Below, piece after piece: positions 58,401 through 64,000 of a DNA stretch of 64,000 nt (positions are counted from its first letter, which is position 1; every line of letters starts with the position of its first letter). Made by a program: the position numbers. The stretch comes from Escherichia coli 042 (GTDB lineage Bacteria > Pseudomonadota > Gammaproteobacteria > Enterobacterales > Enterobacteriaceae), in assembly GCF_000027125.1 (NCBI RefSeq), contig NC_017626.1; one strand, 5' to 3'.

Positions 58401-61400
58401 GAGTTTATTCTCGATTAGCTGGTGGAGTGTTTCCCGACTGATTTTCATCTGTCTTCCTTTTTAACGACGGTGTGAAGCATGACTGCAATTAACATACAGG
58501 GAAAATATCTGGATTATGTGATCCAGACAGGCAAAAAAATATAGTTAGAATTTATTTGATAATCCGCTCGCTTTTAACCTGGTTTTTAAAACAACCACGC
58601 TTATTAAAAAATAACACGTAATAGCCTGGCGGTTATTTGAATTCTTTTGTTAATAATCCCTATGTGATATTCATCACCTTATTTACTCGTTGTCATCGAT
58701 ACCGTAATCGCCACATTAACACTGCTCGTGCAATTGCCATGGGTGCAATTTTTAAGGAGTTGTTATGATCCACGCCTTTATTAAAAAAGGGTGTTTTCAG
58801 GATTCGGTCAGTTTAATGATTATTTCACGAAAACTCAGCGAATCAGAAAATGTTGATGATGTTTCCGTAATGATGGGTACGCCCGCCAATAAAGCGTTAT
58901 TAGATACCACAGGTTTCTGGCATGACGATTTTAATAACGCCACGCCGAACGATATTTGCGTGGCAATTCGTAGCGAAGCGGCGGATGCGGGGATCGCGCA
59001 GGCGATTATGCAACAGCTTGAAGAGGCGCTAAAACAACTGGCGCAGGGTTCAGGCAGCAGCCAGGCGTTGACGCAGGTGCGTCGCTGGGACAGTGCCTGT
59101 CAGAAATTACCCGACGCCAGTCTGGCGCTGATTTCAGTGGCTGGCGAGTATGCGGCGGAGCTGGCGAATCAGGCGCTGGATCGCAACCTCAACGTGATGA
59201 TGTTCTCTGATAACGTCACGCTGGAAGATGAAATCCAACTTAAAACCCGCGCGCGGGAAAAAGGCTTGCTGGTGATGGGGCCGGACTGCGGTACGTCGAT
59301 GATTGCCGGCACGCCGCTGGCTTTTGCTAACGTGATGCCGGAAGGCAACATTGGCGTCATTGGCGCTTCCGGTACCGGGATTCAGGAGCTGTGCTCACAG
59401 ATTGCGCTGGCAGGGGAGGGAATTACCCACGCGATTGGTCTTGGCGGGCGCGACCTCAGCCGTGAAGTGGGCGGCATCAGTGCGCTAACGGCGCTGGAAA
59501 TGCTCAGCGCAGACGAGAAAAGCGAAGTGCTGGCATTTGTTTCAAAACCACCTGCCGAAGCTGTGCGTCTGAAAATTGTTAATGCCATGAAAGCAACTGG
59601 CAAACCGACGGTGGCGCTGTTTTTAGGTTATACCCCGGCGGTGGCCCGCGACGAGAATGTCTGGTTTGCCTCCTCGCTTGATGAGGCCGCACGCCTGGCT
59701 TGCCTGCTTTCACGCGTCACGGCGCGACGTAACGCAATAGCACCTGTCAGCAGCGGATTTATTTGCGGTTTGTATACCGGCGGTACGCTGGCTGCTGAAG
59801 CGGCGGGATTACTTGCCGGACACCTTGGCGTGGAAGCCGACGATACCCATCAACATGGCATGATGCTCGACGCCGACGGACATCAGATCCTCGACCTGGG
59901 CGATGATTTTTACACCGTCGGGCGTCCCCATCCGATGATCGACCCGACCTTACGCAACCTGTTAATTGCCGATCTCGGCGCTAAACCGCAAGTGCGCGTG
60001 TTGCTGCTTGATGTCGTGATTGGCTTCGGTGCGACTGCCGATCCTGCCGCCTCGCTGGTGAGCGCCTGGCAAAAAGCCTGTGCCGCGCGTCCAGACAATC
60101 AACCACTGTATGCCATTGCCACGGTGACAGGCACCGAACGTGACCCGCAATGCCGCTCGCAACAAATCGCCACGCTGGAAGATGCGGGGATCGCGGTCGT
60201 GAGTTCGCTGCCGGAAGCCACCTTGCTGGCGGCAGCGTTAATTCATCCGCTCTCGCCTGCCACACAGCAACACACACCGTCATTACTGGAAAACGTCGCC
60301 GTGATTAACATCGGATTACGCAGCTTTGCGCTGGCGCTACAAAGCGCCAGCAAACCGGTTGTGCATTACCAATGGTCGCCAGTCGCCGGCGGCAATAAAA
60401 AACTGGCTCGTTTATTAGAACGTTTGCAATAAGGGGTTCCCATGTTTACATCAGTGGCGCAAGCCAATGCTGCGGTTATCGAACAAATTCGTCGTGCTCG
60501 TCCACACTGGCTGGATGTGCAACCGGCTTCTTCACTTATCAGCGAACTAAACGAGGGCAAAACACTGCTTCACGCCGGGCCGCCAATGTGCTGGCAGGAG
60601 ATGACCGGACCCATGAAAGGGGCATGTGTGGGCGCATGTCTGTTTGAAGGCTGGGCGAAAGATGAAGCGCAGGCGCTGGCAATGCTGGATCAGGGGGAAG
60701 TGAACTTCATTCCTTGTCACCATGTGAATGCCGTCGGGCCAATGGGCGGCATTACTTCTGCCAGTATGCCGATGCTGGTGGTCGAGAACGTGACCGACGG
60801 CAACCGGGCGTACTGCAACCTCAACGAAGGTATCGGCAAAGTGATGCGTTTTGGCGCTTACGGCGAAGATGTCCTGACTCGCCATCGCTGGATGCGCGAT
60901 GTGTTAATGCCAGTATTAAGCGCGGCGCTGGGGCGCATGGAGCGCGGTATCGATCTCACCGCGATGATGGCGCAGGGCATTACCATGGGCGATGAGTTCC
61001 ATCAACGCAATATTGCTTCCTCAGCACTGTTAATGCGTACGCTGGCCCCACAAATTGCTCGCCTCGATCATGATAAACAGCACATTGCGGAAGTGATGGA
61101 TTTCCTCAGCGTGACCGATCAGTTCTTCCTCAACCTCGCGATGGCCTACTGCAAGGCGGCGATGGATGCTGGCGCGATGATCCGCTCAGGCAGCATCGTC
61201 ACGGCTATGACCCGCAACGGCAATATGTTCGGGATTCGGGTCAGCGGGCTGGGCGAACGCTGGTTTACTGCGCCTGTAAACACTCCCCAAGGTCTGTTTT
61301 TCACCGGTTTCTCGCAGGAGCAGGCGAACCCGGATATGGGCGATAGCGCAATTACCGAAACCTTTGGTATTGGCGGAGCGGCGATGATCGCAGCGCCTGG

Positions 61401-64000
61401 CGTAACGCGCTTTGTCGGTGCGGGTGGCATGGAAGCGGCCAGAGCGGTATCTGAAGAGATGGCGGAAATCTTCCTTGAACGCAATATGCAGTTGCAGATC
61501 CCCGGCTGGGATTTTCAGGGCGCGTGCCTGGGGCTGGATATTCGTCGCGTGGTAGAAACCGGCATTACGCCACTCATCAATACCGGTATCGCCCATAAAG
61601 AGGCGGGGATCGGGCAGATTGGCGCAGGCACTGTGCGGGCACCGCTGGCGTGCTTTGAACAGGCGCTGGAAGCACTGGCTGAAAGCATGGGGATTGGTTG
61701 AGGAACGCACAATGACGATCATCCATCCTCTGCTTGCCAGCCGTAGTGCACCGAATTATCGCCAGTCCTGGCGGTTAGCGGGCGTGTGGCGGCGGGCGAT
61801 TAACCTGATGACGGAAAGCGGTGAATTGTTAACACTGCATCGTCAGGGTAGTGGTTTCGGCCCCGGAGGATGGGTGCTTCGCCGCGCGCAATTCGATGCG
61901 TTATGCGGTGGATTATGCGGCAATGAACAACCGCAGGTTGTGGCACAAGGGATTCGCCTCGGACGTTTCACGGTTAAACAGCCACAGCGTTATTGTTTGC
62001 TGCGTATTACGCCGCCTGCGCATCCTCAACCGCTTGCAGCTGCATGGATGCAACGCGCGGAGGAAACCGGGCTTTTCGGGCCACTGGCGTTGGCGGCAGG
62101 CGATCCGCTTCCTGCTGAATTACGCCAGTTTCGCCACTGTTTTCAGGCCGCGCTCAATGGCGTGAAGACCGACTGGCGGCACTGGCTGGGCAAAGGTCCG
62201 GGATTAACGCCGAGTCATGATGACACGCTGAGCGGAATGCTGCTGGCGGCCTGGTATTATGGCGCTTTAGATACGCGCTCCGGTCGCCAGTTTTTTGCCT
62301 GTTCCGACAATCTTCAACTCGTTACCACAGCGGTGAGCGTCAGTTATTTACGTTATGCCGCGCAAGGATATTTCGCCTCGCCACTCCTGCACTTTGTCCA
62401 TGCTCTGAGTTGCCCGAAACGTACCGCTGTTGCGATTGATTCGCTGCTGGCGCTGGGGCATACGTCAGGGGCAGATACGCTGCTGGGGTTCTGGCTTGGT
62501 CAACAATTATTACAAGGAAAACCATGAAAACACTGGTTGTGGCTCTTGGGGGCAACGCCTTACTCCAGCGCGGCGAAGCGCTGACGGCAGAAAATCAATA
62601 TCGCAATATTGCCAGTGCTGTACCCGCGTTGACGCGCCTGGCCCGTTCTTATCGGCTGGCGATTGTTCACGGCAACGGGCCGCAGGTGGGGCTGCTGGCG
62701 TTACAGAATCTGGCGTGGAAAGAGGTAGAACCGTATCCGCTGGATGTGCTGGTAGCGGAAAGCCAGGGGATGATTGGCTATATGCTGGCGCAGAGCTTGA
62801 GCGCACAGCCGCAGATGCCGCCTGTCACGACGGTGCTGACGCGCATTGAGGTTTCGCCTGATGATCCGGCGTTTTTGCAGCCAGAGAAGTTTATCGGTCC
62901 GGTTTATCAGCCAGAAGAACAAGAGGCACTGGAAGCGGCTTATGGCTGGCAGATGAAACGTGATGGTAAATATTTGCGCCGGGTGGTGGCGTCTCCGCAA
63001 CCGCGTAAAATTCTCGACAGCGAAGCCATTGAGTTGTTGCTCAAAGAGGGGCATGTGGTGATTTGCAGTGGCGGCGGCGGTGTGCCTGTGACGAAAGACG
63101 GGGCAGGGAGTGAAGCAGTGATTGATAAAGATCTCGCCGCTGCGTTGCTCGCTGCGCAGATTAACGCCGATGGGCTGGTGATCCTCACCGATGCTGACGC
63201 GGTTTATGAAAACTGGGGAACGCCGCAGCAACGCGCCATTCGCCGTGCCACACCGGATGAGTTAGCGCCATTTGCCAAAGCCGATGGTTCGATGGGGCCG
63301 AAGGTAACGGCGGTGAGTGGCTATGTCAGAAGCCGTGGCAAACCTGCGTGGATTGGGGCGTTATCGCGGATTGAAGAGACGCTGGCGGGCGAAGCGGGGA
63401 CCTGTATTTCGCTGTAGTCGTAGGCATTAGACATTTGTGCCTGATGCGACGCTTGACGCGTCTTATCAGGCCTACAATGGGTACCGGAGCGTTAAGCCGG
63501 ATAAGGCGTTCACGCCGAATCCGGTAAGAATATGTGCACCAGGTTAACTGAACTTACTCTGCGCCCAAATCACGCCACTGGCATACTCCGGCGGCAGCAG
63601 CGGGATTAAGGCTTCCAGCGTCGCGGTCAGACGCGATGTGTCGCTGTCGGTCAAATTCAGATGCCCCACTTTACGCCCCGGACGGACTTCTTTGTCGTAC
63701 CAGTGCAGATGCACTAGCGGCAGTTTCAGCCAGTCATAATTCACATCGCTACCAATCAGGTTGATCATCACCGACGGGCTATTCACTACCGGTTGCGGTA
63801 ACGGCAGATCGGTAATCGCCCGCAGATGCAGCTCAAACTGGCTGATGCTGGCACCGTTTTGTGTCCAGTGACCGCTGTTATGCACACGCGGAGCCAGTTC
63901 GTTGATCAGCAGACCTTGCGGGGTGACAAAACACTCCATCGCCATCACGCCCACATAGCCCAGCTCCTGCATAATCGCCGACAACATCTCTTCAGCTTGT

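Follow-up and report, generated by a model that had tools for sequence, protein, structure and literature searches.

Organization of the locus

The window analyzed here is a stretch of 64,000 nucleotides from contig NC_017626.1 of Escherichia coli 042, and its ORF list contains, at 58765-63417 on the forward strand, four genes that are intact and closely packed: fdrA, ylbE, ylbF, and ybcF. The first, fdrA (allF; 58765-60432), encodes 555 residues and corresponds to the SucD-like subunit of oxamic transcarbamylase (OXTCase); it is followed by ylbE (allG; 60442-61701; 1260 nt, 419 residues, uninterrupted), ylbF (allH; 61712-62527; 271 residues), and ybcF (allK; 62524-63417; 297 residues), the last being a catabolic carbamate kinase gene. 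The preliminary description, made from the sequence alone, had proposed a complete module with an uninterrupted 419-codon ylbE, and both points hold: the span runs exactly from the ATG of fdrA to the stop codon of ybcF, and ylbE opens with an ATG and has no internal stops. Spacing within the module is tight: fdrA and ylbE are 9 nt apart, a 10-nt gap separates ylbE from ylbF, and ylbF overlaps ybcF in an ATGA. For ylbF the ORF list offers a longer, TTG-initiated frame from 61619; the start taken here is the ATG at 61712, which agrees with the RefSeq annotation and with a published RT-PCR primer, ATGACGATCATCCATCCTCTG. GC content is 0.57 in the module and 0.55 in the window.

Upstream, the module diverges from allD (57399-58448, reverse strand), the gene adjoining it in the allE-allC-allD operon (55346-58448, reverse strand). 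This operon is intact, with K-12 gene lengths, and by annotation taken from Ecol_316 and NC_000913.3 it provides the steps directly before OXTCase: ureidoglycine aminohydrolase, allantoate amidohydrolase, and ureidoglycolate dehydrogenase. Farther out, at 43477-55216, lie allS (reverse strand), allA, allR, gcl, hyi, glxR, allW, allB, ybbY, and glxK, again intact and of K-12 length, at 94.8-98.4% nucleotide identity. Thus the four-gene order, the tight coupling, and the divergence from allDCE inside the allantoin cluster are all present in the window. Divergence of this size (94.8-98.4% nucleotide identity) is expected between E. coli lineages. A foreign origin of the module, considered because of its 97% identity to most E. 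coli, was set aside, as all 17 genes of the cluster are similarly diverged from K-12.

On the other side, the convergent spacer between ybcF and purK (63418-63543) carries two REP-like palindromes and folds at -47.4 kcal/mol (z = -3.05); it measures 126 bp, as opposed to 194 bp in MG1655, and has one REP unit fewer. A scan of 58300-63700 found no canonical hairpin-plus-T-run terminator after ybcF, and matches to promoter consensus sequences over the same interval were no more frequent than in shuffled sequence. When the whole window was scanned with Rfam, no RNA element fell inside the module.

Protein families and function

Each of the four products belongs to a defined family. FdrA scores 1039 bits against NCBIfam NF004760 (cut-off 433), with residues 1-555 covered, and its residues 82-555 are matched by PDB entry 3DMY, “Protein fdrA.” YlbE scores 326.5 bits (cut-off 27) against Pfam PF06545, “AllG,” formerly DUF1116, and has a homologue of solved structure in 3CLQ (E=2e-111). 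YlbF scores 103.4 bits (cut-off 25) against PF11392, “AllH,” formerly DUF2877; a solved structure of AllH was looked for and none was found. Finally, YbcF scores 615.6 bits against the NCBIfam equivalog NF006926 (cut-off 416) and matches the carbamate kinase structures 8CRV and 1E19, with PDB carbamate kinases reaching down to E=9e-89. Because these scores far exceed their cut-offs, because every gene, compared with K-12, has a dN/dS near 0.07 (0.065-0.073), and because the module is near-universal in the species, the four ORFs are real genes and not chance ORFs.

The function of the module is established in the literature, where fdrA-ylbE-ylbF (allFGH) is oxamic transcarbamylase, also called oxamate carbamoyltransferase, and ybcF (allK) is the catabolic carbamate kinase (PMC11326118, PMC9843812). 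The assignment in the preliminary description, an oxamate carbamoyltransferase plus a carbamate kinase in the distal part of the allantoin regulon, agrees with this work. AllF-AllG-AllH, once purified, shows OXTCase activity, for which kinetics were measured; oxamate formation is lost in deletion mutants; and wild-type MG1655, the strain in which these studies were done, converted 19.5 mM allantoin to 17.7 mM oxamate (PMC11326118). Since the MG1655 wild type made oxamate from allantoin, K-12 MG1655 also has the allantoin-to-oxamate route.

By orthology to the MG1655 proteins, AllF, AllG, and AllH of the window would together form the oxamic transcarbamylase that interconverts oxalurate plus Pi and oxamate plus carbamoyl phosphate, and AllK would use carbamoyl phosphate and ADP to yield ATP, NH3, and CO2. 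In this scheme allFGHK would finish the branch that leads to oxamate in the anaerobic use of allantoin, after AllB, AllC, AllE, and AllD. Enzymatic function, co-transcription, and regulation in the window strain are thus expected from the literature to follow this model. As none of the window's 17 allantoin-cluster genes is disrupted, a complete anaerobic allantoin-to-oxamate route in this strain is a reasonable, if unremarkable, prediction from genotype.

A different reading takes FdrA for an acyl-CoA synthetase or an oxamate:CoA ligase, such that the module would do something other than transcarbamylation. FdrA does carry the Pfam domains CoA_binding (PF02629) and Ligase_CoA (PF00549), both above cut-off, it weakly resembles the alpha subunits of succinyl-CoA synthetase, and RefSeq still lists its product as “acyl-CoA synthetase FdrA.” However, the activity of the purified three-protein enzyme and the phenotype of the deletions speak against it, FdrA is now listed in NC_000913.3 as “putative oxamate carbamoyltransferase,” and a co-transcribed carbamate kinase suits carbamoyl phosphate as the product; we regard the CoA-ligase reading as extremely unlikely. 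The RefSeq labels “acyl-CoA synthetase FdrA,” “DUF1116,” and “DUF2877” trail the literature.

The ylbE frameshift is a legacy K-12 feature

The preliminary description had also set the uninterrupted ylbE against a copy split by a frameshift in K-12 MG1655, and this contrast fails. In the current MG1655 reference, NC_000913.3, ylbE (b4572) is an intact 1260-nt CDS, as it is in the independent MG1655 assembly CP010443. Alignment of the window gene with the NC_000913.3 locus gives equal length and the same frame, with no indels, at 97.2% nucleotide identity (35 nucleotide and 7 amino acid differences), the outcome that the preliminary description had itself named as refuting it. The remaining genes behave in the same way: fdrA is 97.5% identical to its K-12 counterpart at the nucleotide level, with 7 amino acid differences, and ylbF and ybcF each have 5 amino acid differences. 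Overall, the four proteins are 98.2-98.7% identical to those of MG1655, and the genes are collinear and without indels.

The frameshift was nonetheless reported for the older MG1655 reference and persists in the W3110 record, and it is its standing for MG1655 that has been superseded in NC_000913.3. Its source is a G5 tract at nt 252-256 of ylbE (60693-60697, forward strand), where the window and NC_000913.3 read CAGGGGGAAG and W3110 (NC_007779.1) reads CAGGGGAAG, with G4. Removal of one G from the tract brings a stop in at codon 87; with G5 and not the G4 allele, ylbE of the window stays open through codon 419. Papers mapped to the earlier MG1655 reference accordingly list ylbE as a pseudogene, repaired by +G and A->G (PMC5460176, PMC4404585, PMC4759930, PMC3045373), and the W3110 RefSeq record still marks the gene “frameshifted.”

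On these older records one could argue that an intact ylbE sets the window strain apart from MG1655, whose split gene would break the oxamate branch. This is scarcely credible, however, given the two intact MG1655 sequences in the window's frame, the several papers that find the repaired allele in MG1655 stocks or close K-12 relatives, and the fact that both the OXTCase genetics and the conversion of allantoin to oxamate were carried out in MG1655 itself. Moreover, genomes with an exact match to a 59-nt probe for the G4 allele number no more than 5 among 5,416, and the four matches listed are W3110 and three K-12-type records, of K-12 size and with the match at K-12-like coordinates. Phase variation or recurrent slippage at the G5 tract was rejected on the same counts. 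The “split ylbE” of K-12 comes down to the loss of one base from the G5 tract, limited to legacy K-12 records; the uninterrupted gene is the ancestral state and near-universal in the species, and the K-12 frameshift is unfit as a contrast when other genomes are read.

The 4.65-kb module is found at >=80% coverage in 5,407 of 5,426 complete E. coli genomes, with ORF integrity checked gene by gene in about 10 of them and the remainder scored for module presence. Intact ylbE was also seen in UM146, O104:H4, O157:H7, NRZ14408, strain 410, and Ecol_316. Elsewhere in the module, the roughly 10 genomes examined showed three lesions: ybcF frameshifted in one case, a deletion associated with IS1 in another, and an IS1 inserted upstream of fdrA. 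The window strain is almost identical to Ecol_316, the two modules differing by a single synonymous change in ylbF. Very probably, then, what lies here is the usual, functional allFGHK operon belonging to the core genome of E. coli, with an intact ylbE as the species norm. All of this is already known, the function having been published in 2022-2024 and the regulation in 2025; the importance of the locus as a finding is therefore small, this being a core operon that is intact in the current MG1655 reference too.

Promoter alleles and lineage-specific substitutions

The divergent intergenic region separating allD from allF (58449-58764) has the K-12 length of 316 bp. In K-12, the four genes are reported to be co-transcribed from this region, with expression needing AllS, for the allantoin signal, and ArcA, for anaerobiosis (PMC11326118, PMC9843812, PMC12535856), and EMSA assigned AllS binding to a fragment at -203/-144 and ArcA binding to one at -142/-83 (PMC12535856). 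The 9 substitutions against K-12 all fall within -195 to -103 relative to allF and inside these two fragments, so that variation is confined to the central ~93 bp, where both regulators are reported to bind. As a matter of sequence conservation only, the window counterparts are identical at 54 of 60 positions for the AllS fragment and 57 of 60 for the ArcA fragment. Two allele types can be told apart: the window resembles O157:H7, UM146, and NRZ14408, while K-12 and O104:H4 carry the other. From sequence, the two types might conceivably differ in AllS or ArcA responsiveness, but we consider this improbable. Were it true, what is known of oxamate-branch regulation in K-12 would not be directly transferable to most pathogenic lineages, that of the window included.

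A related and likewise improbable notion is that the window lineage has the genes but an impaired or differently regulated route, through protein substitutions or through these SNPs in the AllS and ArcA operators. Besides the promoter changes, there are lineage-specific substitutions to consider: R50C, E83D, A200T, and A249S in YlbE, found in the window only among seven alleles compared (the Ecol_316 protein being identical to that of the window), and further ones in FdrA (E524A) and YbcF (A37T, E211A). Against this, a dN/dS near 0.07 points to purifying selection that continues, three other strains have the promoter allele in common with the window and it is the K-12/O104:H4 type that is the minority in the sample, matches to the module reach >=99% identity in 169 genomes, and position 50 of YlbE, the one inspected, varies in the distant homologue 3CLQ too. 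FdrA D296Y, a gain-of-flux variant from a coculture study, was looked for as well and is absent, the window having the wild-type D296.

Relation to known systems

The closest known system is allFGHK of MG1655 (fdrA b0518, ylbE b4572, ylbF b0520, ybcF b0521), which the window matches in gene order, in gene lengths (1668/1260/816/894 nt), in intergenic spacing and the ATGA overlap, and in its divergent placement next to allD with purK beyond. The two differ by ~3% at the nucleotide level, mostly synonymous, and by the nine SNPs located centrally in the promoter region. The legacy K-12 ylbE allele is the same gene altered at the same homopolymer site, but with G4, an A at nt 114, and the early stop, whereas the G5 tract and full-length ORF of the window are like those of NC_000913.3 and essentially all other E. 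coli. Among enzymes, OXTCase has its reaction class, carbamoyl transfer to or from carbamoyl phosphate, in common with the canonical transcarbamylases (ATCase PyrBI, OTCase ArgF/ArgI, and YgeW; PMC11326118). It has no sequence similarity to them, and it requires three subunits unrelated to one another: a SucD-like protein, a former DUF1116, and a former DUF2877.

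Results

The preliminary description was correct in placing the fdrA-ylbE-ylbF-ybcF module (published names allF-allG-allH-allK) at 58765-63417 with ylbE as a single 419-codon ORF, as the ORF positions and lengths in the window show: fdrA occupies 58765-60432 (555 aa), ylbE 60442-61701 (419 aa) and ybcF 62524-63417 (297 aa). For ylbF the longest mechanical ORF opens at a TTG at 61619; the ATG at 61712 (271 aa) is the start used in the RefSeq annotation of K-12 and of Ecol_316, a near-identical E. coli strain (NZ_CP018957.1), and in a published RT-PCR primer. The gene junctions are close-set, at 9 nt, 10 nt and then an ATGA overlap.

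The contrast drawn with K-12 MG1655, in which ylbE was described as split by a frameshift, is refuted for the current MG1655 reference. There (NC_000913.3) ylbE (b4572) is a 1260-nt CDS annotated as intact and not flagged as a pseudogene, and the independent MG1655 assembly CP010443 likewise carries it intact and unflagged. Base by base, the four genes of the window match their K-12 counterparts exactly in length, with zero indels, and ylbE is therefore in the same frame in both strains; the differences from K-12 amount to 42 nt and 7 aa in fdrA, 35 nt and 7 aa in ylbE, 28 nt and 5 aa in ylbF, and 34 nt and 5 aa in ybcF. The frameshift has a history in the literature. Studies with reads mapped to an earlier MG1655 reference call ylbE a pseudogene, repaired by an added G close to position 547,831 together with an A-to-G change at 547,694 (PMC5460176, PMC4404585, PMC4759930, PMC3045373); PMC4404585 gives a silent nt 114 substitution, together with an insertion at nt 253, as variation among common MG1655 stocks, and NCM3722 was said to have "restored an intact ancestral gene" (PMC3045373). 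The RefSeq record of W3110 (NC_007779.1) still gives ylbE as 1259 nt, flagged "frameshifted", and on alignment it differs from NC_000913.3 at exactly two places, with A at nt 114 and four Gs (G4) for five (G5) at nt 252-256. With one G removed from this tract, translation ends at codon 87; in the window the tract is G5 (60693-60697).

Across the species, the module is present at no less than 80% coverage in 5,407 of 5,426 complete E. coli genomes, and the other genomes inspected (UM146, O104:H4, O157:H7 TT12A, NRZ14408, strain 410 and Ecol_316) all carry an uninterrupted ylbE. A 59-nt probe for the W3110 G4 allele was exact in four listed records, namely W3110 and CIT, LIM and CAR, the latter three of K-12 size and matching at nearly the same coordinate. 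Of the 5,416 records with a match, at most five fell in the band of 99% or above; the score of G5 genomes whose flanks are K-12-like is 98.3%. Uninterrupted ylbE is the species norm, and the frameshift is a peculiarity of legacy K-12 records. Natural lesions of the module occur but are rare: ybcF is frameshifted in NRZ14408 (907 vs 894 nt); the horse isolate A30 has a gap running from a short remnant after allR (the gcl start in K-12) to a 3' ybcF fragment, with IS1 at the junction of the deletion; and in strain 410 an IS1 takes the place of the fdrA upstream sequence from about -130 outward. Of the 5,426 module-matching places, two are on records labelled plasmid.

AllS and ArcA are both needed for the operon to be expressed, and they bind the allF promoter at fragments -203/-144 and -142/-83, respectively (PMC12535856). 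The allD-allF spacer has the K-12 length, 316 bp, and its nine substitutions relative to K-12 all lie between -195 and -103 of allF (58570-58662, about 93 bp), overlapping both EMSA fragments; the two ends of the spacer, of 120 bp and 100 bp, match K-12 without a difference. Among seven other genomes compared, six retain the spacer, and in these the flanks do not vary, but for one change each in UM146 and O104:H4. By allele, the window falls with O157:H7, UM146 and NRZ14408, and K-12 partly with O104:H4; -103A is the sole change specific to the window/Ecol_316 lineage in this comparison. The spacer variation looks like ordinary lineage-level polymorphism. Downstream, the ybcF-purK spacer consists of REP-like palindromes, one unit fewer than in K-12.

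The window is a segment of the E. coli chromosome, and its 4,653-bp module is reported as a 100.0% match to Ecol_316, the single difference being a synonymous one at 62041 in ylbF; 14 positions differ over 38765-64000. Identity is about 99.95% in the right half (31907-64000) and 98.5% in the left (1-31879), whose mismatches are concentrated around 9-15 kb and 26-29 kb, a pattern suggestive of recombination, or of repeat-region divergence, in the adhesin island. The gene for a giant BapA-related adhesin, siiEA (4873-25650, + strand), flanked by TolC-like and type I secretion genes, is one 20,778-nt CDS (6,925 aa) in Ecol_316 and four ORFs in the window, with an added G at 6201 (GGG to GGGG), a lost A at 13795 and TGG to TAG at 19069-19071. 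In E. coli 042 the gene is thus either a pseudogene or affected by assembly errors. At 30104-32275 (- strand), a region with internal repeats of about 370 bp, a 723-aa ORF stands where Ecol_316 is annotated with a 349-aa YadA-like protein. Rfam matches above the gathering score were STnc480 sRNA (55273-55339, +, between glxK and allE), naRNA4 (33045-33122, -) and AgrB (42164-42252, +), which adjoins dinQ. Between ybbP and mnmH (about 41600-42300) there is a short spacer with dinQ/AgrB only, where K-12 has rhsD-ybbC-ylbH-ybbD-ylbI-ylbG.

Discussion

The functional reading of the module in the preliminary description is supported by the literature (PMC11326118, PMC9843812). Work with purified YbcF showed it to be a catabolic carbamate kinase (PMC9843812); allF, allG and allH are all needed for oxamate formation from allantoin, and oxamic transcarbamylase (OXTCase) activity was shown with purified AllF-AllG-AllH, with KM values for carbamoyl phosphate and oxamate of 1.3 mM and 36.9 mM, respectively (PMC11326118). 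Family assignments concur. FdrA is a full-length match to NCBIfam NF004760 (1039 bits; cut-off 433) and also carries Pfam CoA_binding and Ligase_CoA domains, YbcF matches the carbamate kinase equivalog NF006926 (615.6 bits; cut-off 416), and YlbE and YlbF match PF06545 (326.5 bits) and PF11392 (103.4 bits), whose current Pfam names are already "Oxamate carbamoyltransferase subunit AllG" and "AllH"; NCBIfam has no model for either. Many RefSeq records keep the old labels 'acyl-CoA synthetase FdrA', 'DUF1116 domain-containing protein' and 'DUF2877 domain-containing protein'. Solved structures are available for FdrA (3DMY), a YlbE homologue (3CLQ) and carbamate kinases, and a structure search found none for YlbF.

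All 17 cluster genes (allS, allA, allR, gcl, hyi, glxR, allW, allB, ybbY, glxK, allE, allC, allD, allF, allG, allH and allK) are intact, each of K-12 length and with 94.8-98.4% nucleotide identity to K-12. Together with the low dN/dS of the four module genes (0.065-0.073 vs K-12) and wild-type D296 in FdrA, this makes a complete anaerobic allantoin-to-oxamate route in E. coli 042 a reasonable prediction from genotype. In a small sample, the substitutions specific to the window lineage include YlbE R50C, E83D, A200T and A249S; position 50 varies too in the distant homologue 3CLQ. The module is an already known feature of low significance. Wild-type MG1655 converts 19.5 mM allantoin to 17.7 mM oxamate (PMC11326118), and the route is common to K-12 and nearly all E. 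coli, with an OXTCase that is unrelated to the ATCase/OTCase/YgeW family (PMC11326118).
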